This document shows positions 9,562 to 55,326 of a DNA stretch of 64,000 nucleotides, piece after piece. This stretch comes from Pseudomonadota bacterium (GTDB lineage: Bacteria; Bdellovibrionota_C; UBA2361; SZUA-149; DAOLCO01): positions 108,028-172,027 of the forward strand of contig JAIYCX010000028.1 of assembly GCA_027487795.1 (NCBI GenBank). The letters run 5' to 3'. Made by a program: the position numbers and the translations under genes. The notes beneath the pieces are model-generated. The model ran no database searches. It saw nothing but the letters and a program-made list of their open reading frames with translations, and was not told the origin of the DNA. Positions within the stretch are counted from its first letter, which is position 1; every line of letters begins with the position of its first letter.

Positions 9562-9572
9562 GGTATCTGAAA

Positions 9573-9700: not shown

Positions 9701-9715
9701 TCGCAGAATCTGCCC

Positions 9716-9792: not shown

Positions 9793-9795
9793 TAA

Positions 9796-10311: not shown

Positions 10312-10330
10312 AATTGTAGAGACGATTGAA

Positions 10331-12956: not shown

Positions 12957-12998
12957 TAGATTTATAATTTGTTAATTAAAATTTTTTAAATATTTCTT

Positions 12999-14180: not shown

Positions 14181-14190
14181 GAGTAAAACC

Positions 14191-15894
14191 ATGTCAGACA
14201 AGAAGCACACACCAACCATAGTACAACTAGTCTACATGGACGAAACTGGCGATAGCTACTACCGTATGAGGTGGCCAGGTTATGTTCTTTCTCTACAAAA
14301 ACCTGAATGGAGAGTTATTAACTTAGATGCACGGTCAAAAGATAAAATTAAATATGCGCTAGAAGCGGACTTGTTAGTTTTATTTCAGTCAAATGACTTA
14401 GATATGCATTCTATTATCAGACAAAGAAGAGAGAACGGTCTCAAGACACTAGTTGAATATAATGATGATTTTTATTCTCCAAGTGCGGCTTCTCCAATTA
14501 GAGACGAATGGTCTTCTCCGCTTTTGTGGCAGACTTATGAAAGTATTATGAATCAGGCAGATAATATTATAGTTACTGGCTATGGTCTAGAAAGATTGTT
14601 TTCTAAAAGATCAAAAGTTCCAATTACTATACTTAAAAATCAAGTCTTAAAAAAATATCAAGAAAAAGCAGCTGAGAGAAAAGATAAACAATTTAGAATT
14701 GGCTGGGCGGGGTCGCTAGGGCATATGGGTGACCTGCTAGCAATGCTGCCTCACTTAGCTGAGTTCTGCATGAGACATGATAACTGTATTCTACATTTGA
14801 TGGGGAATGAAAGTATTCCAAATTATGTAAACCTTCCACCAAATAAATTAGTATTTAAGCCTTGGGGAACTATGAATGATTATTATAGTTTCTTGTCACA
14901 ACTAGATATTGGAATCGCACCTCTGAGTAGTATTCCTTATAATTTTTCAAGATCTGATATAAAAGCAGTTGAATATGCTTCTCGTGGAGTGGTTCCACTA
15001 GTGCAGCAAATACTACCTTATGAAGAAATAATTAGTACAGGTGCCGCATTAGGTTTTTCTTCGTTTTCAGAATTATTAACAAAACTAGAAGAACTTCATA
15101 AATCTAAAGAATTATTAAATCAGTCAAAAGAAAAAGCTTTTAACTATGCTAGCAATCTTAGAAATGCAGAACAAATAACTGAGCGGTTAGAGCTATACGA
15201 AAAGTACCTTCCTAAATCCCCTCGTGGGTACTTAGATGATTCTTTTAAACCTGGCTATCATGAAGTGATAGGCGAGCTAGATAGTACTATGAAGTCTACT
15301 GAGATATTAAATTCTCTGAATAAGCTACTAGAAACGGACTTAGATGCTGCGCTAAAATTAATCGAGCAAAACCAAGATCGCTTAACTTTTGATAATAACT
15401 TTGCTTTAATCTGCATTAAAACTCTACTTAAAGCAAAAAAATCTCATGCAGATAGTGTAATGAAAGAATGTATTAAGACATTCCCGCTTGATCTTAGATT
15501 TTATCTTTACTTTGCACAAACTAGAGTTAGTAGAGGTGACAAACTAGCTGCCTGGAGTCAAATTTTAGAAACGCTAAATAGATCTTCTGATTCATTTAAG
15601 AAGTTTTTTGAAATTAATGTTTGTAACTTACTAACTAAAGACATTGAAAATTTCCCAGATCTACTTTTAATAGCATTTGAAATTGGGAAGATGTTTGAAA
15701 ATAATAAGTTATTATTCACGATTGGAAGTATAGGGCTTGCAAATGGAGATTTTCATTTAGCTTATGAATCTTTAACTAGGTTATCTAGATCTGTTAAGGT
15801 TACTTCGAGGAAGAATATAGACTTTGTTGATATTCCGCAAAATACCTTGGATACATTTATAGAGGCGGCGGATTTTGGAAGGAGGATGTTGTAA
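14191..15894 (+). CDS. Hypothetical protein in the glycosyltransferase cluster, with a helical/TPR-like C-terminal half
   Basis: Starts 11 bp after the GT4 stop, with good coding periodicity. 'IGWAGSLGHMGDL' is a weak GT-B-like patch. No firm family assignment. Confidence 0.5.
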   Translation: MSDKKHTPTIVQLVYMDETGDSYYRMRWPGYVLSLQKPEWRVINLDARSKDKIKYALEADLLVLFQSNDLDMHSIIRQRRENGLKTLVEYNDDFYSPSAASPIRDEWSSPLLWQTYESIMNQADNIIVTGYGLERLFSKRSKVPITILKNQVLKKYQEKAAERKDKQFRIGWAGSLGHMGDLLAMLPHLAEFCMRHDNCILHLMGNESIPNYVNLPPNKLVFKPWGTMNDYYSFLSQLDIGIAPLSSIPYNFSRSDIKAVEYASRGVVPLVQQILPYEEIISTGAALGFSSFSELLTKLEELHKSKELLNQSKEKAFNYASNLRNAEQITERLELYEKYLPKSPRGYLDDSFKPGYHEVIGELDSTMKSTEILNSLNKLLETDLDAALKLIEQNQDRLTFDNNFALICIKTLLKAKKSHADSVMKECIKTFPLDLRFYLYFAQTRVSRGDKLAAWSQILETLNRSSDSFKKFFEINVCNLLTKDIENFPDLLLIAFEIGKMFENNKLLFTIGSIGLANGDFHLAYESLTRLSRSVKVTSRKNIDFVDIPQNTLDTFIEAADFGRRML

Positions 15895-15917
15895 ATCCCT
15901 TCCATTCTTCCCATCTT

Positions 15918-15951
15918 CCTGCCTACGCAGAATAGATTCTGCATAGGCAGG
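15918..15951 (+). terminator. Putative rho-independent terminator after the 14191-15894 gene
   Basis: cctgcctacgcagaat..attctgcataggcagg. 15-bp stem with one mismatch, followed by a G/T-rich tract. Confidence 0.4.
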
Positions 15952-16011
15952 TGGAGGGGTTTTCGTTTGTTGGGACGCAGCAGAACATACCACCACCATT
16001 CGTTTAAAAAA

Positions 16012-16175
16012 ACAGGAAGGGTAGGAGGATAAGAGGGGTTTAATAATTTAGGTCGTGATAGAGGAAAAAGAGAGTTGAGGTAATTTCGAAAACTGTGGAG
16101 CTTTGCAAAAAGTTTGTGTGATACAAACCTAAAACTCTCCCCTTCTATTCTCCTATCCTTCCTGTTTTTTCTCCC
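16012..16175. repeat. MITE-like element with ~28-bp imperfect CT/AG-rich terminal inverted repeats
   Basis: Left arm acaggaagggtaggaggataagagggg. Right arm ctccccttctattctcctatccttcctgt, ~85% reverse-complementary. A related CT-rich stretch lies at 15896-15925 and a solo copy of the arm at 42003-42045. Confidence 0.35.
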
Positions 16176-16550
16176 CAAAGAAAGACAACACAAAACCAAC
16201 TGACAAAAAATTTGCCAAAATAAAAACCTAACACTTCAGTACTTCTTACAACCAACAACTACAATCGATTTAGGTTCAAAAAATCAAAACCTAAAATCGA
16301 AACTCCTTTTATACAAACGTCCTATTACGTACTTTAAGTATCGAGATTTATTAGATTTTACTTTAATAGGAAAAATATCATTTAATATAGAATGTATTAC
16401 TGCTTCAATAACTTCCTCTCTAATCCTTTAAACATCTGAAATCACTATAAAATAATCTTGCTGATATTATTGGATTTTAAGTAATCGAATCCCACTCCTA
16501 CTCTCAAATGGCGTAATAGCAAATAGATAAACTAATAGTTGACATAATAA

Positions 16551-26090: not shown

Positions 26091-27731
26091 TTACGTAGCT
26101 AATGCTATCTCATTAGTTTTCAAATTATAATCATCTGTTCTTGGGCTATCATTTGAAGCTGTATGCTTCCACGCATGATAACTACTTCTAACCAAGGGCC
26201 CAGACTCGACATGGGAAAATCCCAAACTGTTTCCTACTTCTTCATAAAACTTAAATTCTTCTGGCGTAACAAATCTAAGTACTGGTAGTTGCTTCCCTGT
26301 TGGTTGCAAATACTGCCCAATAGTCAAAATATCTACTGAAGAAGCTCGGAGTCTTTTCATCACTTCTATAACTTCTTCTTTTTCCTCACCGAGTCCAACC
26401 ATTAGACCAGATTTAGTTTTAACGCTAGGTAAAATCTCTTTTGCCCAAGCTAATATATCAAGTGATCTTTGAAATATCGCCCCAGGTCTTACAGTTTTAT
26501 AAAGCCTAGGAACTGTTTCAACATTATGATTTAAAACTTTTAGCATTTTACTAGCTAAAATTGTTTCAACTAATTCCTTTCTTCCTCTCATGTCAGGAAT
26601 TAAAAACTCTACATCACAGTCAGGTGATAGTTTTTTAATAGCTCTAATAGTTTTATCAAAGTGACTCGCACCCATATCAGCGATATCATCTCTATTAACA
26701 GAGGTAATAACTATATGTCTTAGACCTAAACTTTTAACTGCTTGCGAAACTCTTACAGGCTCTAAAGGATCCAGCGGTGACAAATTTTCAAGAGAACCAT
26801 CTTTCACTGAACAGAAAGAACATCTTCTTGTACAAAGATCTCCCATTATCATAAATGTTGCAGTCCCATGAGACCAACATTCACCCATGTTTGGGCACTT
26901 TGCTTCTTCACAAACTGTGACTAATTTTAAGTCATCTACTATTTGTTTTGTCTCTAAAAATTCAGGCGAGCCCGGAGCCTTAACTCTTAACCAACTTGGA
27001 CGAGCTCTTTTTCTAACAGAAATTTCACCTTGAGTAGGTTTTTGATCTAAGTTTATTTGAAGTTTAAAAACGGCTGTAAAACTATCAATCAAAGCCGACC
27101 TTACACTATTTATATCAGGGCATTTATCTCCTAATATATCCAACATCGAAGTCATAACGGTACCATCTTGACCACAAGGTTGTATCGCATAGAAATAATC
27201 TAAGTCCGGACAAACATTTAAAGCTAGACCATGATAACTAGTCCACTTTCTTACTCCAATTCCGATCGATGAAATTTTCCTGTAAGTTTGTTCGCCAGAA
27301 TTATTATGAGCTCTCTTAACCCAAACTCCAGTAAGGCCTTCAATCCTTTCTCCAAGAATCCCGAAACAAGATAGAGTTCGGATTACTACATCTTCTAATC
27401 TTCTTAAAAATTTATGAACATCCTTTTCGAAATCAGCCAGACTAAAAATCGGATACGCGACTAATTGCCCAGGCCCATGATAAGTAGCCTGACCACCTCT
27501 ACCTATTTCTACCCAGCGCACATCCTTACATTTCGAAATTGTCGGAACTAAGAATGGAGAACTTCTACCACTAGTATAAACATGGTCATGTTCAACAACT
27601 ACTAGAGTATTAGGAATTGTCTCATCTTTTAAACGCGCATCAAGTATATTAGTCTGGATACTGAGCGTAGAAGAATAATCTTCAGGCCCCGGCCGATCAA
27701 CAACTACTAGTGGTAATACTTTTCCGCGCAT
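26091..27731 (-). CDS. Fused octanoyltransferase (LipB-like) and lipoyl synthase (LipA) bifunctional protein
   Basis: N-terminal half: LipB motifs 'GRGGQATYHGPGQLVAYP', catalytic Lys 'RKISSIGIGV', 'PCG'. C-terminal half: radical-SAM lipoyl synthase cysteines 'CEEAKCPNMGECW' and 'CTRRCSFC'. One continuous 546-aa ORF. Confidence 0.8.
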   Translation of the reverse strand: MRGKVLPLVVVDRPGPEDYSSTLSIQTNILDARLKDETIPNTLVVVEHDHVYTSGRSSPFLVPTISKCKDVRWVEIGRGGQATYHGPGQLVAYPIFSLADFEKDVHKFLRRLEDVVIRTLSCFGILGERIEGLTGVWVKRAHNNSGEQTYRKISSIGIGVRKWTSYHGLALNVCPDLDYFYAIQPCGQDGTVMTSMLDILGDKCPDINSVRSALIDSFTAVFKLQINLDQKPTQGEISVRKRARPSWLRVKAPGSPEFLETKQIVDDLKLVTVCEEAKCPNMGECWSHGTATFMIMGDLCTRRCSFCSVKDGSLENLSPLDPLEPVRVSQAVKSLGLRHIVITSVNRDDIADMGASHFDKTIRAIKKLSPDCDVEFLIPDMRGRKELVETILASKMLKVLNHNVETVPRLYKTVRPGAIFQRSLDILAWAKEILPSVKTKSGLMVGLGEEKEEVIEVMKRLRASSVDILTIGQYLQPTGKQLPVLRFVTPEEFKFYEEVGNSLGFSHVESGPLVRSSYHAWKHTASNDSPRTDDYNLKTNEIALAT

Positions 27732-41641: not shown

Positions 41642-41799
41642 AAACATCGGATACTTTTAAGCTATACTAAATCCGATGTTTATAACCTACTGCATATATT
41701 ATATATAATAATCATGTTTTTGAAGCTATTAATATTATGCTTTATTTATAATAGGTTAAAAACATCGAATTTAGTATAACTTATCTAAATCCGATGTTT
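41642..41799. promoter_or_regulatory. Pair of inverted ~40-bp hairpin motifs (aaacatcgRat...atccgatgttt) in the divergent promoter region
   Basis: 41642-41681 has 11-bp perfect arms. 41760-41799 is the same motif in inverted orientation with diverged loops. Between them is an AT-rich (TA)n tract. Confidence 0.4.
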
Positions 41800-41961: not shown

Positions 41962-42002
41962 AATTTTGCAATGCAAATATGATGCATTTGCATTGCAAAA
42001 TT
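41962..42002. promoter_or_regulatory. Perfect 17-bp-arm palindrome ~145 bp upstream of the giant ORF
   Basis: aattttgcaatgcaaat atgatgc atttgcattgcaaaatt. The arms are exact reverse complements. Followed by a CT-rich tract related to the 16.1-kb repeat. Confidence 0.5.
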
Positions 42003-42144
42003 CTCTACCCTATTCTCCTAACCTCCTATCCTTCCTGTCCAATTTCCCCAATCTTTCATACTTTAATGAAGCAAAACGATAGTATTAACTGATAAGTTAC
42101 CATAATAAGTACATGATTTAAGTATTTAAAAACTTAGAGGTTTT

Positions 42145-45100
42145 TTGCCGAAAGTAGCTAACAATTCAAGCGGTTACGCTAAAGACTCTGCATTGCTATC
42201 AAATGCTGTCGAACTCGTTTTGCCCGAAAACCCGAGGCTTAGAGAAGAATTAAGTAAAGAAAACTCAAAAAATAAATCAGAAAAACTACCAGAAGGACTA
42301 TTAGATAAAAGCTTAGGAGAAAGTTTAAATAAGCTAGTAAGCGAACTAGGCGATGCCAGATTCGATCGTGGTTTTAACATGACCTATGGCCAAGCCACTC
42401 AAGATAACAATATTTACAAAACTCGACTACAAGTAGCTAGTCAGCAGATCGAGGATTCAAAACTAAAGATTAAAACCCATCTAATGCATAGTGGCGCTAC
42501 TCCTGAAGAACAAAAAGCGCAATATGATAAGATACGAGCATTTGCCGCTACTCGTGAACTTGAAGGACTGAATCAATTCCAAGCAGCAAAAACTGAGTAC
42601 CAAAGAAGATCTGTTGAAGAAGCAGAAAAGGCAAGAAGAGAAGGTGGAGCAAGTTACGCCCTAGGGGAAGTATTAACAAAAGCCACAAAATCAGCCTCTA
42701 CTCTTATTCCAACAACTAAAGAATCTGTGGATATATTAGGCAGTGCGATATTCTCAGGCGGTGAAGGAATAGAAAAAGTAAGACTTAAAAATCTCTCGGA
42801 AAGAGGAGAGTCCGTTCTTGGAACAACAGAAGAGTTTGCTAAAGGAAGTAATTCATCATTTAGCAATACAGTAGCCCTAATGGGAGTAGGTCTAGCTCCA
42901 CTAGAAAAGGTATCAGGGATGACCTTAAACCCAGCTCTAGAGAGCGTAGACATTGGTCTTAGAGCCTCAAGAGCTGCAAGTTATAATGCAGTTTCTGCTA
43001 ACGATGCTCAGATTAGTTACGGTGAGTATAAAGAGCTAGAAGATAGAGAAGGTCTACTAAAAGCAGCGAAGCTTAGTATGGACGGTGCAAAGATAGCACT
43101 AGGAGCAGCAGCTCTTGGACCTAGCTCTTTGTCTCAGTTAAGTCAGCCTATGCTAGTCTCAGGAGGTATGGGGTATGCTGGTGCTTTATCAGAAGAGCTA
43201 CTATCAAAAGAAGGTTTTAAATTAGGACGTTTTTTAGAGCATGGTTTTACTGGGACAGCAGATAGTTTTCTGTTCATGGGTGGCATTACAGGAATCGGTC
43301 ATATAGCAGAGAAGACTGGGGCACTACATAAGATGTCGTCAGTAAAGACATTATTAAGTCTTGAGAATGGAGTTCAGAAGGAGAAGAAACTAGAGGCTAT
43401 TTATAAAAGCTTTAAGGGACTAGAGATCACAAATGATGAGGCAAGGTTTGTAAGTAATCTAGTTGCTGAGATGAAAATGGGGCTAAGTGGGAAAATAGAC
43501 CTGATTGATTCTCTACCGGATGTTCAAAAGAGTCTAAATATATTTTTAGAGAAGGTCGGAGATTTAAGCGCACTAGAGATCTATGAGAAGCTTAAAAAGG
43601 ATCCAGAGTATCGCAGGATGCTAAGCGGGGCGGTTCTTAAAGTTGGAGTATCAGGGTTTGATGCTTTTGATGTTAAGAGCGGTACTAAGGGGATGGAGAG
43701 TCTAGAACAAACAGGAAGGATGGAAGATGGGAAGGGGGAATCCTCCACCGTCATCCCTGCACAGGTCGCTGGTCTTGTCACCGCTGCGGAGGCACAGGCA
43801 AGGATCCAGGAGAGTTTAGAAAAAACAGGAAGGATAGAAGGAGGGAAGGAATTTAAAAACTCAGAACTAGAAACTTTCGCAAAACGTCTTGAAAAATCAA
43901 AAGGTGTTAGTCTTGTTTATGACAAAGAAACTCTAATAAAAGAACAAGCAGGTGCTCTTTACAATCCTGATGAAAAAATCATTTATGCTCCAACAGATGC
44001 AGTAGAACAAAACAAAGTCACAAAACAATTAAAGCATGAAAAAATCCATGCGATGCTTGATAGAATAAAAGACGAGGGCGGAGATAGTTTTTCTTTTGGG
44101 AAAATGTCCTTAACTGGCAAAGATACAACCCTAGAAGAGTTCGTAACTTATCCAGAAATGCTAGCAGAATATGCAAAGGATATTAGAAAGAATCTTGGAA
44201 ATTTAGATTCAAACCTAAACTTTATAAAAGAACATGTACAAGTTCTTAGAGATTACAATGAACAACTCAATAAAACCTTAAATATCAAATTCAACTCAGA
44301 TCTAGAAATAAACACAAACTCTGGTATTTTAGATAAAGTCATACAAACTTTTCAAAATATATTTAACTTTGGAACTAAAACTAATCTAGAACTAGAAACA
44401 AAAAAACGTATTGATAAAGATGGTAACACTATCTACGTTAAAATTGGAACTATCAAAAAAGGTGATTTATCATTATCACTAGATCTATCCATAGCTTCAG
44501 ATAGAAATAATCTGAACTCAGACACTGATGCAAAAAAGCTATTTAGTGAAAAAATAGAAACTTTAAAATTCGTACAAAAAACTACAAGTGATGCATTAAA
44601 TAAAATTAGTAAAAGTATTTCTAGTAATAATCAAGAATCGCTAATCTCAAATATATTCGATCTCCGAAGTCAGTTATTTCCAATTTATGTAACTTCAGGA
44701 AGCGGTGTAACTGCAGCTAAAAATGTTCCTACTGGAACAAAAGTTGAATTAAATAAAACATTATCCAAAGAAGATTTAGTAGATAAGTATGATTATGTTC
44801 AGGCGGCGACGCATAGTTCTGTGGCACAAGCACTTGAGCTATTAAATAATTTTCCTAATTCAGAAAAAGAGCTTAAAGAATTTATAAAAAATACTAAGTT
44901 AAATAAATCTCAAATTAAAAAGATAGAAAAACATGCTGTTTCTATAGGTAGATCACTTGTAGAAAATGAAGAATTAAATAATTATAATAAGCTAACTCAT
45001 GTAAATAGTTTATATAGGTTATCTCACATATTTAAACAGCTAGGCCTAGATTTATTAAATAATAAAGAAATTATAGCCGCTATTAGTAATAGAAATAAAG

Positions 45101-48100
45101 CTATAACTGATAGTTCGGCAAAATACTCGGCTAAACTTCTGGTCGAGCGCAAAGTAAGAAATCAAAATTTTATTAGCAAGCATTACACAATCGTACGTCC
45201 ACAAAAAGAACAAACTGAAGAAATTAAACAAGAAGAGAATGAAACAAAAGAAATTAAACAAGAAGAGAATGTACATTTATTAAAAAGAAAAAGTACTAAT
45301 GATTTACCAGATGAAAAGAAAACACCAGTAGAATTACTTAAGCTTCAAATCAAAAACTTTCAGGGCATTACAGACAGAATACAAACAAATTTAAATAGCC
45401 TTCAATCAGACGACTATCAACGTGCTGAAGTCTATCAATTTGCTGAAAACAGATTAATTATTTTAATAGAGCAAGGAAATTTTAAAGTTTTTTCAAGTCT
45501 AATTGAGTTATTAAGACAAAATGAATTTGAATTAGCTGACTTTAAAAAAGTTCATGATTCTTTAAACCAATATTATTCAAATAAATCTGCAGATATATTA
45601 ATAAAAAGTTTAAATGAAGATCTTAATAATCTGCCGCTATCTATAAAACTTAATCTAATAAAATCTAGAATTACTAATACTATTCAGAGCGAAGGATTCT
45701 TAGCTTTCTTGAAAGTCTCAGCAAAACTCGATGAAGAAATTAGGAAAAATATCTTTGCAGATGAAACTATAAAAAAACTAGCTGCTGATGCAATAGTAAA
45801 TGAATTATTAGATCCTAACAATTCAAAGGTTCATCAAGTATTTAATGAAAACTATTTAAACTTTAGCAAAGATGAATTAAAAGATATAAGCAATCGTGTT
45901 GAAAAATTAAAAAGTATAGACTCTGAGAGAGCTGAAGAAAGTACGTTAACAGAAGCTAGTGAAACTGATGAAATACAATTAAGTCAGTTTGATTTAGATA
46001 ATCTAGAAGAAGGTCAAATAAAATCAGTATTTTATTATTCAAAACAATCTGCAAGTATATTTTTACTAGGCTTAGATGAAGGCCTTAAAACTCTCCCGCA
46101 GTCTGTAAAGCTTAATGTAATAAAATATAAAGCTGCTTTAATTTTTAAAGATAATGGATTTTTGTCTTTTATAAAATTCGCAAAAAAATTAGATACGGAA
46201 TTTAAGCAAAATATCTTAGCAGATGAAACTATTAAAAAATTAGCTGCCGATGCAATAGTAATTGAATTAGTAAATCCCGAGAACTCGAAGGTTAATAAAG
46301 CATTTCAAGATAATTATTTAAACTTTAGTAAAGATCAATTAGAAGAGATACGCAGTCGTGTTGAGAAATTAAAAAATTCAAATAATCATAGCGCTGAAGA
46401 ATCTAGAAGACTACATAAAGAATTATTCAAAGATGGAGATAAATCAGATAGAGAAATAATGCGAGCTATAAAAAAGCTAGGCTATCCTACTGGAATATCA
46501 AAAGATGAAGTGGTAGGTAGGTTCAGAGATTTTATTGTAGCCGGAGCTTTTGATTCAATAAAGTTAGATATAAATAGATTTAGAAATAAAATCACAAACG
46601 CAATGGTTATAGAGGCTATTGCAGACGTAGAGGAACTGCCAGGATCTGAAATAGAAAGAACTAAAAATAGCGCTGATAGACCTAGTATAGTTCGTTTTTA
46701 CCAAAGTCAATTTAACGAATTTGAAAATGAAGTTCTAGAAGATATAGAAAAAAATAAACTTATAGATCATGATTTATCAAACAAAATAAAACTATTAATT
46801 CGGGCTAAACATGTTGAATCAATATACGAAATGCGTGGCATTAGATTATCTAGCATTTTAGAAGATTTACCCGCTAGATTATGGGAAGAACAATTCATTA
46901 AATATCCCTCTGAATATCATTACTTCCTGAGTAGACTTTCTTCAGAAGAAGTTAAAAGTTTAAATGCTAATCACGCAAATACTTTCTTAAAAATAGCGGG
47001 CATTCAAGCTCAATCCGCTGATAAAGATAATAATCCTTGGGTTACTGAGTTTGAATCTTTAGTTAAGCATCTTATTGAAACTAAAAAGTTTAAATACGAA
47101 GAGCCAAAAACGGGCGATACTCTTATTGAATTCGTAAGCCAATTTGGAATGGTTAATACACCAGAATTAGCAAATGTATTTTTTGATTTATCTTCAATCA
47201 AAGACTACAAAGATCAAAATCAGGATACTAAAAATCTCATTAATAATTTATTTTTAGAAGCTAAGGCTATTAATGAAGCTAAATCTACTAATAAAATTTC
47301 TATACCAGAGATTACAGAGTTAACTAAATCACAAGATATTAAAAAGTTTTTGATTTCCTACAAACAAACTCTTCTTGTTAATTTAATTAATGAAGAAGAA
47401 TCAACTTTAGCAAACCTAGATAGTGAACTTTCAAAAAATATATTAGAGTCAATCTTAGAAACATCATTTGACAGAGACAGTATTGATATTCCTAGTGTTA
47501 TAAAAACCTTGAGAGATAATTTAAATTCTAATAAAAGAAGCTTCTCTTTAGAAGACTACCAAAAAGAAAAAACAATTGATGTTAAATTAGTTAGAAAGAA
47601 AATAGGCGTTGACGAAGCTGCCATAAACAAAGAAAAAGAACGTGCGCTAGCTAATCCAGATCTTATAAAAGTAAGTACTAACTTAACTCAAACGATATCC
47701 AAGGCTCTAGAAGCAATTGATTCCGGCAAAGAAAATGCTTTGATTGTCGAAGAAATACAAGAAGCACTAAAAAACTTAAACCAAAGATTATTAGAAATAC
47801 AGAATGGTTTAATTAAGCCTGATCTAACTGAAAATGCTAAAAAAGGTATTTCAATAAACCTTATTAAAACCGAAGCAGATATTAAATTATTAAATATTCT
47901 ATTAAATAATGATTCCTTTGATCAGATTATTGGTAAATTAGACTCTAACAATCAAAATCATCTAAGTATAATTCAAGCTATTTCAACTTTAGAAATAGTA
48001 AAATCTTTACCTGAAGAAACCCTTAATCAATTACAAAAAGTTTGTAATGATAATGTAAGTTCTGAAATTATAAAAGAATCTTCTTTAAGATTTTTAGCAA

Positions 48101-51100
48101 ATTTCATAAATAATAATATTACTTTATCTAAAGATTTAAAAATACAAGAAGCATGGAAAGTAAAAAACTTATCAAAGCATCCAATCTTCGTAACTATTGC
48201 AAAAATAAAAGAGCTTGATAATTCAACCAATGAAGTATTAAACGATACTGGCAAAATCTTAATGGTTCCCGTGAAAGGACTTCTTCATGTTATGTCTGGT
48301 TTCATATCTGACGCTTGTACCACAGGCATTGCAAATAACCTGGCGGCAGGAAAGGAACCAAGTGTCACAACATATTTATTTGTCACAGACAGGGGCACTT
48401 CTTCTGAGAAGGTTAGAGGTGCAGTATTAGGAATTGAAACTTTTACACCAGATGGCAAAAAAGTATTAGTTATTAGAGCTAATAATCCAAAACAAGGTAT
48501 AGGCACACGCTTCGATACAGATTCTTTATTAGAACAAACAGTAGAATACTTCAAGAATATGGCTGTCGAAGGGGGATTCGATTATTTAGTAGTACCTGTA
48601 GACGGAACTGGTGAGTCAGGTTCAAATCGAGATTTTGTTTCTGATTATTATCAGGAAAATTATTCTAAAAATGAAAAACTTCAACTCATTCAATCTAGTG
48701 AGACAGAACTTAATAGATACTCGAATTTTAATAGTAAAGGACCGAATGCTGTAAGAGTAGTTTGGAGTAGAGAAGCAGAAGAAAAAGTTTCTGATGATGT
48801 TTCACTTGACGTAAGAAGCAGCAGCAAGACTCATGAAGAGTCTGAAAATCTCAATTCTCGTACATCAAACTCAATATCAAAAACACTAAGTAATTCCATA
48901 AGCTGGATTTTTAGCTCAGGAAAAAAATCTAATGTGGATAACCTTAAAGAATTAATAACTCAATCTAGAAGCTTACTATCTCAATATAGGGTGTATTCCT
49001 TAGAACAAAGAACTCAATTACTAACGCCAAAGATTCAAGAAATAAATGGATTAGTAAAACAAAGATTAGATGAATTAAATCTTAAATATACAACAACAAC
49101 CAATTTCAAGCTCTTTCCAGAACTCAAAAAAGAATTTGCTGGTATAGAATGGTCCATTTTCATTATAGATCCGGAACAGAATAGCACAAATTCTATTGCA
49201 AAGTACGCAAAAAAAATCGATCTTATCAATGGTGGTCAGCTTGTAGTAGACGTACCTAGATTAATCATAAATCAATATGATGCAGTAGTTACTAATGATA
49301 TTCATACCCTATCCGTTAATGGATTAATTAAAGGCGAAATCGATAAGCTTAGTGACTTCCATGAATATGATCATTTAAAAGGTAGAAAACTAAATGCTGA
49401 TGGAAATTCAACTCCCTATTCCGGTTTCATAGAATCTTCTTTATTTAGTAAATATATCAAGTCAGAGCAAAGCTCTGATATCATGGTAAACCATGATGAA
49501 CTTTTAGCTTATACTAAAAATATTTTAGAATTAGTAAAGAGAGGAGACAAGCTTAAAAATATTCTTCATGAAGTAAATTCATATAAAAATAATTTTGTTG
49601 ATTTCTATAAAAAAGAATTAGCATTATTTTCAAGTCCAACTACAACATACTCTGCACAAGGAAGCACAGCTTACTTTACACATGTATTCCCCTTAGATAA
49701 AATAACTATTCATGACTTAGTCCTAGGAGAAGCTACACAAGGAAAAGAAAAAATAACATTTTTCTTAGGCAAAAAAGGAGATCTAATAGCGCTAGCTGAA
49801 AAAAATAATCTAGAATTAAAAGAGCTCGTTGAGCTACTAATAAAAGAGAGGATAAAAGAATTATTAGATATTACTACAAATGTATCAGCACAAGTTGAAA
49901 CATTTCTTAAATCAATAGAAGAAATTAACAAATCAAAACCTAAAAATTATAAAAAAATAATTGATGATAAATGCCTAGACTTTGCTACTAGCTTAAGATT
50001 TTACACACTATCAAGAGCAAAAAGTACTTCTAGTGACTTATTAGAAAACTACTTTAAGCAACTTAATAAAAATAATGATTCTGCTTTATCAGATTTGCTA
50101 GGCGATCTAGATTCAGAGCCCCTCTCCGCTCTCGACCTAAAAAACAAATACTTTAAAGACGAATCTCTAGAAGCTCCGCATATTACCACTAATGGTAAGA
50201 TTAGATATGTCGGATCTAGAGAGCAATTACAGGAAGAGTATAAAGCATTACTAGGAAGTGGTGCTGTATTAAATGAAAACACAGTTGCTTTTTATGATCC
50301 TAAATTTAAACAAACAGTAAGTATTATTCCTGAGACTTTAAGGAATAAAATAAATAATGTTAAAGAATCAGTACCAAGAGATCAGAGAGTTATTGAGGCT
50401 TCTTTTATAATTCATGAAAAGACACATGAGAAGCTTTCAGCAGGCAAAACTAATTTCTCTGATGCAGAAAGATTTAATCAAGAAGTAGTTTGTTACAGAG
50501 CTCAGGCTGAATATCTTTTCGATAGAGGCTTTATCATGAGCTTTAGCTCTGATGGTTATAGTATAGAAAAGAAATTACCCGGTGATAATATTTTATCACT
50601 AGATGAAAATCTAGATCTAAGTATTAAAAAATTTATAAACGCACATTATAATTTTCCTAATTATGTTACTAACCCTTATGAAGTAGAAAGACTTGCTAGT
50701 TTCTCTAAGGAACTTCTTAAACTACAACCTTATGAATCTAAAGTTTATGGTAGAGATTTTTTAGAGCAAAGCGATCTTCCAGAAAATGTAAAATTAAAAG
50801 ATTTAGCTTCCTCTCAAGCAAGATTAACTCGCATGCCAGACGTTGAAGGTAAGCCTAAATTTGTTATAACACCACTAGGTGGTGATGGTGTTTATAAAAA
50901 TGGTAAAAAAATAGACACAGAAACTGAAATTAATTTATTTGATAAAGTATGGCTTGGTTCTGTTGTAAAACTCCACACCTGGGAGAAGTTAAATACAGAT
51001 TCTATTTACAGAAGGGTAGATCGACCTAAATTTTTTAAAGATAAAGAAATATTGACTGTCCTAAGCTATATATTAGATGATGATATTCTTCACTCTCCAG

Positions 51101-52470
51101 AGTCACAAAAGATACTTACTGGTAAGCGACTACCAAAAGACAATATTAATGAAATCGCAGATATAGTAAATCAAGGCGGTCCGATAAGATTAACTTTAGT
51201 AGGACTAGCTAAAGAAGCAGATAGTCAAGCCATAGTTATAGAATCAATAGATCTCAGAGATCCTGCCGCACCTATAGCAACAATCAGAAATCCTGGCCAA
51301 GGTATGAAGATGATAGTACCTTGGTACAGTATTAAAGACAGACTTGCATATGTTCCTCAATACTATCAAGTAGAAAAAAATAATACGTCAGCACCTTTAA
51401 CAAACAGGCCTTTTGAGGCGATGGGAAATGAATCTGTATTAGATCTTATTAAAGAACTAAAAACCATAGATCTAAATAATAATGGCAAAGAAAAGATAGA
51501 AAATGTTTTAAATCGCATTAATGAGAATCTTGACAAGGCTACTATTCCTTTAATAGATCGTTCTGGGAAAATAATTCAAAAACTTTCTAAGGATGTAATA
51601 GAAGATAACAGTACTTTAGATATTAGTAACGTAGATTATAGTACAATAAAAGAACTCTTCGAAATCGAAGCTCAATTACAATCGTTTGAATCAGCTGGTA
51701 GTTCTATGAGTACTATACGATCATATTTAAATAATGCAAATACTGTTGATGTTTCAGGATCAATATTAGCTGAAGCGATTATACTGGAACACAGGCTTAC
51801 TGGGTTGCCTAAAGATTTTACAAAACAAGTAGAAGTCTATGTAAGATTTATAGGACTACTTAAGAAAGATATTGCTGAAGCTGGATTTAATCAAGATAAG
51901 AATTCAAATACTGATAAGTCAGTATCTAATCTTTATGATAGTTACATAGCTACAGATGGTAAATTATCAAAACTAGCAAAGTATCTTAAAAATAAAAATG
52001 GGATCTATGGATACGAAGAAATTTCTCAGGGGATAATTAATGCTGTAGTTGAAAATTTAAGAATTAACGAAGCTAGGAAATTAAAAACAGCTTTAGATCA
52101 AAACTTAGATAGCTTTGAACAAGTATTTAGCACAGAAGGTGGGGTGCATTATTATAAGTTAGCGGATAATAGTGCCATTGTTGTCAGAGATAATTTTGAG
52201 GATGATCAAGCGCTAGTTAGAAAGGCAGAGAATGTATTTTTTGTTGCTGAAGATCAGGTTAAGGGGATTAAGGAGCAGTTGAAAGCAATTGCAAAGGATG
52301 GGATTGGTATTTTTGATTTTCAATCGATGGCACTAGCGGCAGGTGTAATTCCTTTTGAGCTAATAGGCTTTCAAGTTGCTGTTGGAGTCGATGGAGTTGT
52401 TACTGCTGAAGTAGTTAATAAAAATTCCCAGACGCATTTGGGAGGTGAGATAGTTGAAACTAAAATCTAA
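42145..52470 (+). CDS. Giant hypothetical protein (3441 aa). Predominantly Lys/Glu/Leu/Asn-rich and helical-looking, with no signal peptide. It contains two HExxH motifs and a 154-aa internal tandem duplication.
   Basis: Uninterrupted 10.3-kb ORF with TTG start and an AGAGG RBS 4 nt upstream. The first in-frame ATG is at codon 79. HEKIH at 44037-44051 and HEKTH at 50413-50427 lie in similar local contexts. Duplicated blocks around 45630-46090 and 46092-46550 ('ADETIKKLAADAIV' occurs twice). A Cys-containing conserved-looking block 'GFISDACTTGIANNLAAGKEP' is near 48300. Confidence 0.75.
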   Translation: MPKVANNSSGYAKDSALLSNAVELVLPENPRLREELSKENSKNKSEKLPEGLLDKSLGESLNKLVSELGDARFDRGFNMTYGQATQDNNIYKTRLQVASQQIEDSKLKIKTHLMHSGATPEEQKAQYDKIRAFAATRELEGLNQFQAAKTEYQRRSVEEAEKARREGGASYALGEVLTKATKSASTLIPTTKESVDILGSAIFSGGEGIEKVRLKNLSERGESVLGTTEEFAKGSNSSFSNTVALMGVGLAPLEKVSGMTLNPALESVDIGLRASRAASYNAVSANDAQISYGEYKELEDREGLLKAAKLSMDGAKIALGAAALGPSSLSQLSQPMLVSGGMGYAGALSEELLSKEGFKLGRFLEHGFTGTADSFLFMGGITGIGHIAEKTGALHKMSSVKTLLSLENGVQKEKKLEAIYKSFKGLEITNDEARFVSNLVAEMKMGLSGKIDLIDSLPDVQKSLNIFLEKVGDLSALEIYEKLKKDPEYRRMLSGAVLKVGVSGFDAFDVKSGTKGMESLEQTGRMEDGKGESSTVIPAQVAGLVTAAEAQARIQESLEKTGRIEGGKEFKNSELETFAKRLEKSKGVSLVYDKETLIKEQAGALYNPDEKIIYAPTDAVEQNKVTKQLKHEKIHAMLDRIKDEGGDSFSFGKMSLTGKDTTLEEFVTYPEMLAEYAKDIRKNLGNLDSNLNFIKEHVQVLRDYNEQLNKTLNIKFNSDLEINTNSGILDKVIQTFQNIFNFGTKTNLELETKKRIDKDGNTIYVKIGTIKKGDLSLSLDLSIASDRNNLNSDTDAKKLFSEKIETLKFVQKTTSDALNKISKSISSNNQESLISNIFDLRSQLFPIYVTSGSGVTAAKNVPTGTKVELNKTLSKEDLVDKYDYVQAATHSSVAQALELLNNFPNSEKELKEFIKNTKLNKSQIKKIEKHAVSIGRSLVENEELNNYNKLTHVNSLYRLSHIFKQLGLDLLNNKEIIAAISNRNKAITDSSAKYSAKLLVERKVRNQNFISKHYTIVRPQKEQTEEIKQEENETKEIKQEENVHLLKRKSTNDLPDEKKTPVELLKLQIKNFQGITDRIQTNLNSLQSDDYQRAEVYQFAENRLIILIEQGNFKVFSSLIELLRQNEFELADFKKVHDSLNQYYSNKSADILIKSLNEDLNNLPLSIKLNLIKSRITNTIQSEGFLAFLKVSAKLDEEIRKNIFADETIKKLAADAIVNELLDPNNSKVHQVFNENYLNFSKDELKDISNRVEKLKSIDSERAEESTLTEASETDEIQLSQFDLDNLEEGQIKSVFYYSKQSASIFLLGLDEGLKTLPQSVKLNVIKYKAALIFKDNGFLSFIKFAKKLDTEFKQNILADETIKKLAADAIVIELVNPENSKVNKAFQDNYLNFSKDQLEEIRSRVEKLKNSNNHSAEESRRLHKELFKDGDKSDREIMRAIKKLGYPTGISKDEVVGRFRDFIVAGAFDSIKLDINRFRNKITNAMVIEAIADVEELPGSEIERTKNSADRPSIVRFYQSQFNEFENEVLEDIEKNKLIDHDLSNKIKLLIRAKHVESIYEMRGIRLSSILEDLPARLWEEQFIKYPSEYHYFLSRLSSEEVKSLNANHANTFLKIAGIQAQSADKDNNPWVTEFESLVKHLIETKKFKYEEPKTGDTLIEFVSQFGMVNTPELANVFFDLSSIKDYKDQNQDTKNLINNLFLEAKAINEAKSTNKISIPEITELTKSQDIKKFLISYKQTLLVNLINEEESTLANLDSELSKNILESILETSFDRDSIDIPSVIKTLRDNLNSNKRSFSLEDYQKEKTIDVKLVRKKIGVDEAAINKEKERALANPDLIKVSTNLTQTISKALEAIDSGKENALIVEEIQEALKNLNQRLLEIQNGLIKPDLTENAKKGISINLIKTEADIKLLNILLNNDSFDQIIGKLDSNNQNHLSIIQAISTLEIVKSLPEETLNQLQKVCNDNVSSEIIKESSLRFLANFINNNITLSKDLKIQEAWKVKNLSKHPIFVTIAKIKELDNSTNEVLNDTGKILMVPVKGLLHVMSGFISDACTTGIANNLAAGKEPSVTTYLFVTDRGTSSEKVRGAVLGIETFTPDGKKVLVIRANNPKQGIGTRFDTDSLLEQTVEYFKNMAVEGGFDYLVVPVDGTGESGSNRDFVSDYYQENYSKNEKLQLIQSSETELNRYSNFNSKGPNAVRVVWSREAEEKVSDDVSLDVRSSSKTHEESENLNSRTSNSISKTLSNSISWIFSSGKKSNVDNLKELITQSRSLLSQYRVYSLEQRTQLLTPKIQEINGLVKQRLDELNLKYTTTTNFKLFPELKKEFAGIEWSIFIIDPEQNSTNSIAKYAKKIDLINGGQLVVDVPRLIINQYDAVVTNDIHTLSVNGLIKGEIDKLSDFHEYDHLKGRKLNADGNSTPYSGFIESSLFSKYIKSEQSSDIMVNHDELLAYTKNILELVKRGDKLKNILHEVNSYKNNFVDFYKKELALFSSPTTTYSAQGSTAYFTHVFPLDKITIHDLVLGEATQGKEKITFFLGKKGDLIALAEKNNLELKELVELLIKERIKELLDITTNVSAQVETFLKSIEEINKSKPKNYKKIIDDKCLDFATSLRFYTLSRAKSTSSDLLENYFKQLNKNNDSALSDLLGDLDSEPLSALDLKNKYFKDESLEAPHITTNGKIRYVGSREQLQEEYKALLGSGAVLNENTVAFYDPKFKQTVSIIPETLRNKINNVKESVPRDQRVIEASFIIHEKTHEKLSAGKTNFSDAERFNQEVVCYRAQAEYLFDRGFIMSFSSDGYSIEKKLPGDNILSLDENLDLSIKKFINAHYNFPNYVTNPYEVERLASFSKELLKLQPYESKVYGRDFLEQSDLPENVKLKDLASSQARLTRMPDVEGKPKFVITPLGGDGVYKNGKKIDTETEINLFDKVWLGSVVKLHTWEKLNTDSIYRRVDRPKFFKDKEILTVLSYILDDDILHSPESQKILTGKRLPKDNINEIADIVNQGGPIRLTLVGLAKEADSQAIVIESIDLRDPAAPIATIRNPGQGMKMIVPWYSIKDRLAYVPQYYQVEKNNTSAPLTNRPFEAMGNESVLDLIKELKTIDLNNNGKEKIENVLNRINENLDKATIPLIDRSGKIIQKLSKDVIEDNSTLDISNVDYSTIKELFEIEAQLQSFESAGSSMSTIRSYLNNANTVDVSGSILAEAIILEHRLTGLPKDFTKQVEVYVRFIGLLKKDIAEAGFNQDKNSNTDKSVSNLYDSYIATDGKLSKLAKYLKNKNGIYGYEEISQGIINAVVENLRINEARKLKTALDQNLDSFEQVFSTEGGVHYYKLADNSAIVVRDNFEDDQALVRKAENVFFVAEDQVKGIKEQLKAIAKDGIGIFDFQSMALAAGVIPFELIGFQVAVGVDGVVTAEVVNKNSQTHLGGEIVETKI

Positions 52471-52701: not shown

Positions 52702-55326
52702 CTATTTCAACTCATATAAGATAGTATCACGATAAGGACTCGGTGGATCTTTTTGTATCACTGCGGAGCCCCTAGTTTTATTTGATGATATTGAGGCCGC
52801 ACCACTAGACCTCGGAGTACCAAGCCCTTTCTGTCTTTCTAAAAACTCTTGTCCGAAAATTCTTGTTAGATATCCATTGTCAAATCTGGAGGAAGTAACT
52901 ACTCCCGCTTCCCAAAATGCCATAAAAATATCTAGCTCAGATGGATCTAGAGAGAGATCTCGAATAGCGCTAAGTAATTTAGGCGTCATTTCCGGAAGTG
53001 GAGATGCCACATCAATATATTGGCGCAAATCTACATTTCTAGCTTTCAAAATATTAAATATCTCTTCTCCAGACAAAGTTCGTATCCAGTTAAGACAGTT
53101 AAAAGTAGAGACTCTTTGTGTTAATGTTCCATATGCGGTGGTACCGCTTGGCGTGGTCTTGTAAAATCCCGTACCCGTTCCATCAATAATCTGAACACCA
53201 TTTTCTAACTGTACGGGACCAATTACTTCATCGGCATGATTGGCTGCATGCTGAAATTCTTCTGCCTTATATAGTAAATTAGCTTTCCTCAAACCCAAAC
53301 TAGCTTCTTCGTATAAAGCAAGAACTTCTTTGCCGCTCTGACCAGGACCTAATAGCTCATGAATTAATTCATCTGACTCATCTGCTAAATTTGAAATTTC
53401 TTTAACTACTTCACCATTTGGCCCACGATAAGGCAATACATCTCCAGGTTTTGGAATAAACTGACGCAATACCTCACCAAACATATCATCATTAAAAACA
53501 TAGTAGTGCGTAGGTGTTTTAAAATCAAAAATAGAGATTGTTTTTACCTTATAAGCATAGTTTCCGTGTGTTCCTAAATCGTTAATAGAGCGACCTGCTG
53601 TATCTAATAAGTGTTTCTCACTTAATGTTATTAACTCTTTTTCATAAATAGTTCTTACCATATCGGGTGAAACGTTACCTCCAAGCTGATCAATCTTTTG
53701 TTTTGTAAGATACTTAGCTTGTCTTGCTAATTCGATCATACTAGTTAAATCAAATTCTGCTGTAGCAGTTTTTAATTGTTTACCATTTAACAGTAAGGTA
53801 TTTAATAGCCTGTTTAGTGCTTGTTCTGCTTCATCAATACTGTTTTTTGCTAGATTAGATGAAAATTCATTGAAGGCATTTCTATAAAATGTAAATTGAT
53901 TTATTATTTTTGAAGTTAATGTGGCAGGAAGATCTTTTAGCTTAAATGCTTTAATAAGTTCAGCTAGTTGCTCTAGCTCGGATAAATTTTTTGGTATCTT
54001 AACCGCATCCACTAGGCCCCTTACTACACCTGCTACCGCTGCCTTAAAGCCTGGTGCTGTTGAGATTTCCTTTGCTACTGCTGTTAGCCCAACATTACCT
54101 CCCTGTATGCCACTAGTTAACTTCTGTGCATCTGCCACCCCATCAACCAATTTCATTCCCTTAAAATCACGAGAAAGTATCGCTAGAACAACTAATCTTG
54201 CATAGTCATCAATCTTCATTTGCCCCTGCGCGCCTATCTTAGTTCCGATTGCTAAAGACAAAGAACCGACGGATCCTGCTATAAACATAGCTTTTGAGAT
54301 CTTTCTAAATTTACTAGCTTGCGAAAGAACTGGTATTGAATCCAATAATAAATCCGCTGCAAATCCTGCCTGATCAGCCGCTGTAACTATTGGTTTGTGT
54401 TCCCACCAGCCAGTATCATGAGTTTGTGCATACGCTCTTGCGACTGCCACAAAAGGAACGATTTCTAATGCTAGTTGTGTTCCTTCTAATGTAGTAACTA
54501 CATTTTCCCAGTACTCTTGGTGTCTCTTAATAACAAATCCTTCTGCTATAGAATCTAAAGGATAAGCAGGTGGGAAAACATTTAGTAAATAATAAATACT
54601 GTCCTGATCAGGAGCAAAATATTCTTTAGTAGCTTCATTCCGATTCGGCTCTGAATTATCAGTGGACTTTATTTTAGCTTTTTGCACTACTCGATCGACA
54701 TCTACTTCTTTACCAATAAGTGTAGGCACTCGATAAGCATTACAATTGGGTTCATATTTGATATAAACAAAAGTTCCACAATTTGTAGGAAAGTAAAACA
54801 TGTTTGACCAATTAGGTACCTTTTCTAGCTTACCATTTCCCAGCTTATCATTCATTTTAACAAAAGGTTTGAATTGAAGAAGATAGCCATCTCTTCTCAA
54901 TTTAGTTAGAGTCTTTGAGGTTATAAATGATAATTTAGAATCCTTATCATCCTTACGCCAGTCAGAATACTGTTGACCATTTCTAGTGCCCTCAGTAAAA
55001 AAATAAGCTTTCTCTACTAACCACTCCCTTGATAAATCTTCAGACATTTCCATAAGATGATAAAGTTTTTTACTATCCCACTCCCGATCAAAATTATGGA
55101 CAACCACTACTGGTGCTCCCGCGCCTGCTCCCTTCCCCTTCCAATCAATAAATGAGCACTCTGAAAAATCCTTCATTAGTTCAGTGACTTTTAACTGTGC
55201 TGGATTCCACGGTGGACCCGAAGTATCAATTGCGGCTATCTGTTCTGGACCAGACTCTTGAGATAGAGTTAACTCTGCTGAGAAGTTTAACAGTAGAAAG
55301 AGTATAAAATATCTAATCACTCTCAT
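52702..55326 (-). CDS. Large secreted hypothetical protein (874 aa)
   Basis: Signal peptide MRVIRYFILFLLLNFSAELTLSQ. Long ORF with no domain I can place. Start codon overlaps (ATGA) the stop of the frameshifted remnant upstream. Confidence 0.6.
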   Translation of the reverse strand: MRVIRYFILFLLLNFSAELTLSQESGPEQIAAIDTSGPPWNPAQLKVTELMKDFSECSFIDWKGKGAGAGAPVVVVHNFDREWDSKKLYHLMEMSEDLSREWLVEKAYFFTEGTRNGQQYSDWRKDDKDSKLSFITSKTLTKLRRDGYLLQFKPFVKMNDKLGNGKLEKVPNWSNMFYFPTNCGTFVYIKYEPNCNAYRVPTLIGKEVDVDRVVQKAKIKSTDNSEPNRNEATKEYFAPDQDSIYYLLNVFPPAYPLDSIAEGFVIKRHQEYWENVVTTLEGTQLALEIVPFVAVARAYAQTHDTGWWEHKPIVTAADQAGFAADLLLDSIPVLSQASKFRKISKAMFIAGSVGSLSLAIGTKIGAQGQMKIDDYARLVVLAILSRDFKGMKLVDGVADAQKLTSGIQGGNVGLTAVAKEISTAPGFKAAVAGVVRGLVDAVKIPKNLSELEQLAELIKAFKLKDLPATLTSKIINQFTFYRNAFNEFSSNLAKNSIDEAEQALNRLLNTLLLNGKQLKTATAEFDLTSMIELARQAKYLTKQKIDQLGGNVSPDMVRTIYEKELITLSEKHLLDTAGRSINDLGTHGNYAYKVKTISIFDFKTPTHYYVFNDDMFGEVLRQFIPKPGDVLPYRGPNGEVVKEISNLADESDELIHELLGPGQSGKEVLALYEEASLGLRKANLLYKAEEFQHAANHADEVIGPVQLENGVQIIDGTGTGFYKTTPSGTTAYGTLTQRVSTFNCLNWIRTLSGEEIFNILKARNVDLRQYIDVASPLPEMTPKLLSAIRDLSLDPSELDIFMAFWEAGVVTSSRFDNGYLTRIFGQEFLERQKGLGTPRSSGAASISSNKTRGSAVIQKDPPSPYRDTILYELK

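Follow-up and report, generated by a model that had tools for sequence, protein, structure and literature searches.

The question raised by this locus is what a bacterial protein of 3441 amino acids (aa), devoid of any N-terminal hydrophobic segment and matched by no Pfam family, is made of and what it could do. Its gene lies at positions 42145..52470 of the forward strand in a window of 64,000 nucleotides (the whole stretch of DNA that was analysed, from contig JAIYCX010000028.1 of assembly GCA_027487795.1), and the product is hereafter referred to as the giant protein. The original prediction, made from the sequence alone, had presented it as a candidate giant toxin, effector or scaffold with two HExxH motifs in matching contexts. 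The present analysis indicates that the most widely conserved part of the protein is a very divergent domain with the fold of the GCN5-related N-acetyltransferases (GNAT), and that one of its HExxH motifs belongs to a module shared with another member of the same protein family. We favour, at roughly even odds, the reading of a soluble mosaic multi-enzyme protein built by domain shuffling, which joins an acyltransferase with zincin-like peptidases.

The gene is real, single and encodes a mosaic of several domains. Its 3441 codons are uninterrupted from a TTG start codon, preceded at a distance of four bases by a GAGG Shine-Dalgarno sequence (42137-42140), and the periodicity of GC content over the three codon positions (GC1>GC2>GC3) is kept in all 250-codon blocks of the open reading frame (ORF), including those of the last 1225 codons. 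A chance ORF of this length is not credible in DNA of about 30% GC, and as similarity to another protein, P0003, runs from residue 24 onward, translation must start upstream of that residue. An identical protein is present in the public collection (P0004), on a 247-kb NCBI contig. The ORF of the original prediction is thus intact, with a coding periodicity over its whole length, and the prediction was equally right in its other general statements: there is no secretion signal, as no N-terminal hydrophobic segment and no Sec or Tat signal was found; the protein is charged, K, R, D and E making up 28% of its residues (with 4 Cys and 43 His), and most of its length is rich in K, E, N and L; and Ig-like or RTX repeats are lacking, since no Pfam family was matched by the whole protein (E<=1) or by ten fragments of it (E<=10). 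Searches of NCBIfam, PHROGs and PDB sequences with the giant protein gave nothing significant, and a scan of the GTDB species representatives gave no match. Homologues were reached through parts of the protein: aa 1-550 joined to aa 851-1900 retrieved only P0003, aa 551-850 had no match, and aa 1901-3441 retrieved only P0001 and P0002, both through a region around a conserved cysteine, which we call the Cys domain. This region and the larger module that it closes are located as follows.

46873..48792, forward strand: conserved family module (aa 1577-2216), in which a helical "DPW" region (aa ~1611-1700) is joined by a linker, also helical, to the GNAT-fold domain.
48121..48792, forward strand: GNAT-fold Cys domain (aa 1993-2216), with the key residues Cys2058 (48316-48318), R-A-N-N-P 2111-2115 (48475-48489), N-R 2161-2162 and Tyr2169.

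The alignment of P0001 (1094 aa) and P0002 (1539 aa) with the giant protein is confined to its aa ~2000-2212, which correspond to the C-terminus of each of the two. When a three-sequence profile of the Cys domain was searched against 1.84 billion representative proteins, 794 clusters were retrieved at E<=1e-3, of which 579 at E<=1e-10 and 162 at E<=1e-30. In almost all matches the Cys domain forms the last ~225 residues of helical proteins of 1000-1900 aa. The giant protein matches the family profile with an E-value of 2.2e-104, over aa 1577-1966 and 1994-2216; the first of these segments could be aligned in 138 of 150 family members, and the blastp coverage per 50-aa bin, of 4-22 members over aa 1451-1600, rises to 52-147 members from aa 1601 on. 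Among the 150 sequences, Cys2058, Gly2092, Arg2111 and Pro2115 are conserved at 100%, Asn2113, Asn2114 and Arg2162 at 99%, and Asn2161 and Tyr2169 at 95-97%, the R-A-N-N-P motif as a whole ranging from 96 to 100%; the giant protein keeps all the positions conserved in >=99% of the members. The original prediction had singled out a Cys-containing block as a candidate active site, and this proposal has gained substance, Cys2058 being located in the one domain of the protein that is widely conserved, among invariant residues that resemble those of an active site.

The family has escaped annotation. Its members carry no Pfam or NCBIfam domains, the Cys domain itself (226-aa fragment) matches no Pfam family at E<=10 and none in NCBIfam, and a profile of 63 family sequences matched no PDB chain. 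An N-terminal hydrophobic segment was found in none of the 137 long family members. The three members with a named source all belong to Patescibacteria (two "Patescibacteria group bacterium" and one Candidatus Yanofskybacteria). A metagenome scan with the three-sequence alignment gave seven loci, and no conserved neighbour was found across eight family loci, where the genes are set among unrelated housekeeping genes. At two of these eight loci a Peptidase_S51 gene lies less than 1 kb from the family gene, upstream at the P0002 locus (L084) and downstream at another (L091), which is too few for a conserved neighbour. At one metagenome locus (L087), the family member is limited to 439 aa (9341-10660) and is followed by a 1898-aa alpha-2-macroglobulin-like protein (10816-16512), in the middle of which a Hint / pretoxin-HINT module is inserted.

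The fold of the Cys domain was modelled with AlphaFold2 (AF2) from a 63-sequence alignment, with a mean per-residue confidence (pLDDT) of 89.9 and an overall score (pTM) of 0.78. The order of the elements in the model, b1-a1-a2-b2-b3-b4-a3-b5-a4-b6, matches the mixed alpha/beta fold of the GNATs, and a Foldseek search with the model placed FeeM at the top (E=4e-4), followed by the tRNA-acetylating toxins GmvT, AtaT, KacT and TacT. This topology and this ranking identify the Cys block as a GNAT-fold domain, albeit a very divergent one. In the secondary structure of the model, Cys2058 maps to the first turn of alpha-2, the R-A-N-N-P motif to the end of beta-4 and the N-R pair to the start of alpha-4, Tyr2169 being also on alpha-4. 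The first turn of alpha-2 belongs, in GNATs, to the region that borders the acceptor site. Two other candidate folds were abandoned: a weak PDB match to a Fido domain (7xux, E=0.04) was dropped as the sequence has no Fic motif, and the hint of a macrodomain given by the three-sequence profile (E~0.8) was lost once the deeper profile and the GNAT fold had been obtained. According to the model, the Cys domain is thus a new branch of a known acyl-transferring enzyme fold, and it closes hundreds of large bacterial proteins that are uncharacterised. No fewer than 794 protein clusters, mostly of 1000-1900 aa, end in a GNAT-fold domain that neither Pfam nor NCBIfam detects, which represents an annotation blind spot.

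In one respect the giant protein departs from its family, in which the domain forms the extreme C-terminus. The tail that follows the Cys domain in the 150 members has a median length of 5 aa and reaches 85 aa in the next longest case, against 1225 aa here.

48793..52467, forward strand: lineage-specific C-terminal extension (aa 2217-3441), opening with a Ser/Asn-rich linker (aa 2217-2270).

No homologue of this extension was found beyond the Cys domain in the search with aa 1901-3441, and none in IMG/VR. It is unique to the giant protein and holds an HExxH module of the type present in another family member, P0091 (1838 aa, from a GC-rich organism), which also has a bearing on the N-terminal part.

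42502..43734, forward strand: N-domain (aa ~120-530), a Gly/Ala/Ser-rich shared module with the motifs RFL(E/D), GTADSxLFM and GDAFDxK.
43699-43734 and 43813-43848, forward strand: short duplicated motif, SLEQTGRMEDGK (aa 519-530) and SLEKTGRIEGGK (aa 557-568), the first copy being exactly at the end of the similarity to P0003.

P0003 (1509 aa) shares 84% identity with the giant protein over 507 aa (aa 24-530), and 92% in the core of this region. The similarity stops sharply at aa 530-532 ("...MEDGK"), beyond which the two proteins are unrelated, and the duplicated motif found at this limit may mark a linker, a point of cleavage or the boundary of a recombination event. Of the 150 family members, P0091 is alone in carrying the N-domain, whose core is 31% identical to that of the giant protein (phmmer 8.5e-13); no match to the N-domain was obtained in Pfam, PDB, PHROGs, NCBIfam, plasmids, IMG/VR or JGI metagenomes. 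The order of the parts in P0091 is that of aa 1-2216 of the giant protein: N-domain, HExxH motif ~100 aa further on, long helical region, DPW region and terminal GNAT-fold domain. The nucleotide composition also changes within the gene. The first ~750 codons (42145-44400) have a GC content of 40% and a GC3 of 0.25-0.32, the maximum of the window, and the rest (44400-52470) a GC content of 28-32% and a GC3 of 0.15-0.24, mostly 0.15-0.20. This break fits with a separate history of the N-terminal module, for example recombination or gene conversion with a P0003-like paralogue. Together, an N-domain 84-92% identical to that of an otherwise unrelated protein and a unique 1225-aa extension show an active domain shuffling, and shuffling of this kind is usually tied to effectors and conflict systems. 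As a separate observation, the last ~130 residues of P0003 read like a classical GNAT (…GITLLEEVI…IVQYEKLGFVIE…), Pfam being silent at E<=0.1; with such an end, two otherwise unrelated N-domain proteins would both terminate in acyltransferase-like domains.

The second enzymatic component is suggested by the HExxH motifs.

43957..44184, forward strand: HExxH module #1, putative zincin-like (aa ~605-680), with LYNPDEKIIYAP, then HEKIH (aa 631-635, 44035-44049), then MLAEY.
49360..49374, forward strand: HExxH #2, HEYDH (aa 2406-2410), with no support from similarity.
50290..50574, forward strand: HExxH module #3 (aa ~2716-2810), with FYDPKFKQTVSIIP, then HEKTH (aa 2757-2761, 50413-50427), then YRAQAEYLFDRG.

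The original prediction had noted the motifs at aa 631 and 2757, which are both present, but had overlooked the third, HEYDH at aa 2406. Three occurrences are to be compared with 0.047 expected from the composition (Poisson P ~1.6e-5). The only strong similarity links module #3 (aa ~2745-2807) to the HExxH module of P0091, with a Smith-Waterman score of 64 (z=9.3) reached by 0 of 1000 shuffles; when the HExxH residues were kept fixed in the shuffles, z was still 8.1 and 0 of 3000 reached the score. The alignment takes in the downstream QAE[YF]L...G, and these sequence comparisons indicate that the two modules are homologous.

For module #1 the relationship is one of position. In a MAFFT alignment its segment (AGALYNPDEKIIYAPT...LKHEKIH) stands in register with that of P0091 (VLGFYNAENGTIVAPA...LVHEYAH), and the HExxH lies 101 aa past the N-domain in the giant protein and 107 aa past it in P0091. 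P0003 has a degenerate HENEN at the equivalent site, the second His being lost, and the P0091 and P0003 segments align with a z of 5.0. With the motif fixed, the comparison of module #1 with P0091 is not significant (z=1.6), nor is that of #2 with any module; #1 against #3 is not significant either (z=1.8, and 0.36 with HExxH fixed). The "matching contexts" that had been proposed for the two motifs therefore come down to a shared short motif (LYNPDEKIIYAP, FYDPKFKQTVSIIP), which exists, but in a pair whose similarity is insignificant. Expressed as a pattern, [FLY]Y[ND][PA]-x(3-8)-[IV][IVY]-x(0-2)-P, this pre-motif occurs only in giant #1, giant #3 and P0091 within 192,441 residues, each time with an HExxH in the next 60 aa, for a mean of 0.125 occurrences after shuffling; the pattern was composed after the three sequences had been viewed and is not an independent test. 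A candidate A-E-[YF], whose Glu could provide the third metal ligand, follows the HExxH by 39, 27 and 14 residues in #1, #3 and P0091 respectively, and QAE[YF]L is kept between #3 and P0091. An AF2 model of aa 1993-3192 (three-sequence alignment) had a mean pLDDT of 40.7 and is unusable beyond hints of secondary structure: HEKTH and QAEY fall in consecutive helices after two short strands (pLDDT ~35 at #3), and the region of #2 is coil, without secondary structure (pLDDT ~22-25). The duplicated zincin-like modules of the original prediction are consequently retained in part, through the homology of #3 with the P0091 module and the equivalent position of #1, but #1 is insignificant by sequence, #2 is unsupported and no known zincin family is matched.

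The motifs also recall those of ArdC, in which the corresponding segment (PDB 6i89) reads RAYYNPTGDYIHMPP...HEATH...YAFEELIAE. Tests of homology gave Smith-Waterman z values of 2.9 (#1) and 0.65 (#3) and an hhalign probability of 4%; no PDB profile matched, and tblastn found no ArdC match in plasmids (E<=10). The resemblance to ArdC is at the level of motifs and constitutes a lead rather than a membership.

A possible mode of action can be drawn from these elements. The GNAT-fold domain would transfer an acyl group, probably from acyl-CoA or an acyl carrier, to an amine carried by a protein, by an aminoacyl-tRNA or by a small molecule; the acyl donor is in doubt because the canonical coenzyme A (CoA) loop is missing, and the R-A-N-N-P motif at the end of beta-4 may stand in for this pyrophosphate-binding loop. 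Cys2058, next to the acceptor cleft in the opening turn of alpha-2, could form a covalent acyl-thioester intermediate or be an essential catalytic or binding residue, and Tyr2169 on alpha-4 would be the usual general acid. A Cys-dependent mechanism would be unusual for a GNAT. Modules #1 and #3 might be minimal peptidases of the gluzincin type, with the two His and a downstream Glu in the next helix, and would serve to divide the long polypeptide into its functional parts or to cleave a target. The extension, with its P0091-type HExxH module, has been added past the usual end point of the family. In the absence of a Sec or Tat signal, the protein would act in the cytoplasm or exit by a non-classical route.

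We also consider, as a speculative proposal of low probability, that the terminal Cys-GNAT domain defines a new mechanistic class of GNAT, with an acyl-Cys intermediate and an R-A-N-N-P donor loop, in widespread large soluble proteins prominent in Patescibacteria, and that the giant protein is a chromosomal self-processing effector in which ArdC-like zincins free the acyltransferase and an orphan C-terminal cargo.

Several observations weigh against an enzyme combining acyltransferase and peptidases. The giant protein is off the family consensus at 5 of the 29 positions conserved in >=85% of the members, and the Q/R-x-x-G-x-G/A pyrophosphate loop, expected between b4 and a3, is absent, R2111-A-N-N-P-K being found instead, of which only the Arg fits. 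On the peptidase side, #1 is linked to the P0091 module by position and a short post hoc motif only, #2 stands without support, the sole structure model that covers #2 and #3 is unreliable, and no HExxH module matches a zincin profile or a solved structure (Pfam, PDB profile search). Finally, the neighbourhood gives no pointer to a target or to a delivery route. If the HExxH modules are inactive, the finding shrinks to a new divergent GNAT family and an unusual fusion, useful for annotation and unsurprising.

An alternative is a non-catalytic structural or scaffolding protein, in which the HExxH motifs are incidental or decayed and the GNAT-fold domain is a binding module. The K/E/N/L-rich composition of most of its length, without detectable homologue outside the family module, the HENEN of P0003, which shows that the motif can decay, the missing CoA loop and the "ZapA" label given by one source to a family member, probably from coiled-coil similarity, are all in line with it. 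We nevertheless hold it to be unlikely, since polar residues (Cys, Arg, Asn-Asn-Pro, Asn-Arg, Tyr) that stay near-invariant in 150 diverged sequences are typical of an active site, three HExxH motifs are hardly expected from composition, and #3 is conserved with P0091 down to the downstream QAE[YF]L. The size of the extension raises another doubt, namely that the ORF is a fusion artefact, or results from a very recent loss of a stop codon, and that the functional products are two distinct proteins, an ordinary family member of ~2216 aa and one of ~1170 aa encoded directly downstream. The tail is far longer than that of any of the 150 members, the junction is a Ser/Asn-rich stretch of low complexity (aa 2217-2270), an in-frame GTG with a Shine-Dalgarno-like sequence occurs at codon 2264, and the fused form was found in no second genome (GTDB species-representative scan, aa 1901-3441 search). 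The frame, however, continues without shift and with an unbroken periodicity, and the presence of a P0091-type HExxH module in the extension fits with domain shuffling within the protein group. The independent Logan assemblies of two runs that carry the genome (SRR16126829 and SRR16126830) stop short of the junction, one contig covering only the last 116 codons, so that continuity at this point is neither confirmed nor contradicted. On balance, we see this artefact as an improbable explanation.

The combination of several interspersed HExxH modules with a GNAT domain matches the description of the "polyvalent proteins" (PMC5512222) of phages and conjugative elements, which raises the possibility of a protein delivered with DNA to a recipient, where cleavage by its peptidase modules would set free the acyltransferase along with other effectors. 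The succession A-x-Y-N-P-x(4)-I-x-x-P ... HExxH ... AE recalls the ArdC peptidase domain (PDB 6i89), and the GC content of the gene body is below that of its flanks. The genomic evidence points elsewhere: the giant protein and its three large neighbours have no PHROGs match, tblastn of its modules against 72,556 plasmids and 50,697 phage records was without match, as was a search of IMG/VR, no tRNA and no recognisable mobile-element family was found among the ORFs scanned in the window (of which many were unmatched, three ORFs of >=150 aa being outside the scan), and family members are located among housekeeping genes. With the 4% hhalign probability against ArdC in addition, this explanation appears very doubtful. 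A giant surface adhesin or RTX-type secreted repeat protein, which size alone would suggest, is more improbable still and can practically be set aside: there is no signal peptide, no Ig, cadherin or RTX repeat, no Pfam match, and a single internal repeat in two copies. A known surface repeat protein is likewise ruled out by the Pfam searches, the repeat analysis and the lack of an export signal. The mosaic multi-enzyme protein remains the reading that we retain.

Two other features of the protein were recorded.

45493..46404, forward strand: tandem duplication of a helical unit of ~154 aa (aa 1117-1266 and 1271-1420), with a core of 66.7% identity over 66 aa (E=2e-19, fragment-vs-fragment blastp).
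52333..52389, forward strand: the sole strongly hydrophobic 19-mer, LAAGVIPFELIGFQVAVGV (aa 3397-3415, Kyte-Doolittle 1.82), 26 residues before the C-terminus.

The tandem duplication, with its two copies, is the only internal repeat that was detected, and the protein shows no clear membrane segment, the 19-mer being its sole TM-like stretch. Upstream of the gene, on the opposite strand, lies an ATPase_2/DUF234 gene, and the 545-nt intergenic region between the divergent ATPase and giant genes contains several repeated elements; downstream, three large ORFs converge on the giant gene.

41642-41681 and 41760-41799: 40-nt element in two copies, 73% identical and 118 nt apart, each a hairpin (AAACATCGGAT ... 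ATCCGATGTTT), in the intergenic region.
41962..42002: perfect palindrome with 17-nt arms and a 7-nt spacer (AATTTTGCAATGCAAAT / ATTTGCATTGCAAAATT), ~145 nt upstream of the start codon.
52702-55326, 55654-58797 and 58860-63416, reverse strand: three consecutive large ORFs of 874, 1047 and 1518 aa.

The two hairpin copies together form a 57-nt inverted repeat, and the palindrome may, from its sequence, be an operator site for a dimeric regulator. The three large ORFs have no Pfam or PHROGs match and no similarity to the giant protein; the GC2 of the 1518-aa ORF, at 0.57, is unusual. Other products encoded in the window are a PknB-like kinase, Lnt, an S41 protease, GlgB, a LipB-LipA fusion, PDH E2, FtsEX, an M23 peptidase, a PEP-CTERM protein, CheV, an SbtA-like transporter, a eukaryote-type trypsin and an ECF sigma factor. 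The product of the trypsin-like gene (2652-4793, forward strand) has 713 aa and contains a complete trypsin domain of the eukaryote type (PF00089, E=7e-61) besides ~450 unmatched residues, and a single ORF (26091-27731, reverse strand) fuses an N-terminal LipB (lipoyl(octanoyl) transferase) with a C-terminal LipA (lipoyl synthase) and adjoins the PDH E2 gene. No paralogous copy of the giant's modules was found elsewhere in the window, and no secretion-system gene or immunity gene was recognised near the giant gene among the ORFs scanned. PHROGs, tblastn on phages and plasmids, IMG/VR and the neighbouring genes gave no phage, prophage or conjugative-element context, the annotated neighbours being housekeeping or orphan genes.

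Compared with the known systems, the Cys domain shares with the GNAT superfamily (RimI/NatD-type enzymes, FeeM, AtaT/TacT/KacT/GmvT) a Tyr on alpha-4, where many GNATs have their general acid, and a conserved basic residue at the end of beta-4. It differs from them by a sequence identity of 6-14%, such that no GNAT profile of Pfam or NCBIfam detects it, by the replacement of the Q/R-x-x-G-x-G/A loop with an invariant R-A-N-N-P, by an invariant Cys at the start of alpha-2, which is no general feature of GNATs, and by its location in the terminal ~225 aa of a helical protein of 1000-1900 aa, after a conserved DPW region.

The giant protein is also reminiscent of the polymorphic toxins, as its N-domain is 84-92% identical to that of P0003, the similarity breaking off at aa ~530, with entirely different sequences downstream and acyltransferase-like ends in both proteins. 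However, it has no known trafficking domain (PAAR, LXG, VENN, RHS and similar) and no Pfam toxin domain, and no adjacent small immunity gene was recognised, the downstream genes being large orphan ORFs on the opposite strand. Moreover, the wider Cys-GNAT family conserves its C-terminal module and varies in its N-terminal part, which is the reverse of the toxin pattern.

With the ArdC-type MPTase (PDB 6i89; PMC5512222), the likeness is in the order of the motifs, a strand motif, the HExxH and a candidate Glu-bearing helix, the giant protein having (A/G)-x-Y-(N/D)-P-x(3-6)-I-x(1-2)-P as the first of them; it differs by the absence of statistical support for homology, of ArdC-N, primase, methylase or other typical partner domains and of a phage or plasmid context. 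The polyvalent proteins are large proteins that carry one to five zincin peptidase domains together with GNAT and other enzyme domains, for which an autoproteolytic release of the domains has been proposed (PMC5512222), and the giant protein resembles them by its several zincin-like modules, scattered along a multi-enzyme polypeptide of great length in which a GNAT domain is also present. By analogy, its layout appears closest in spirit to these polyvalent proteins of Iyer et al. 2017 (PMC5512222); what is new here is a divergent and unannotated GNAT family, and its association with zincin-like modules in a new architecture with a unique extension.

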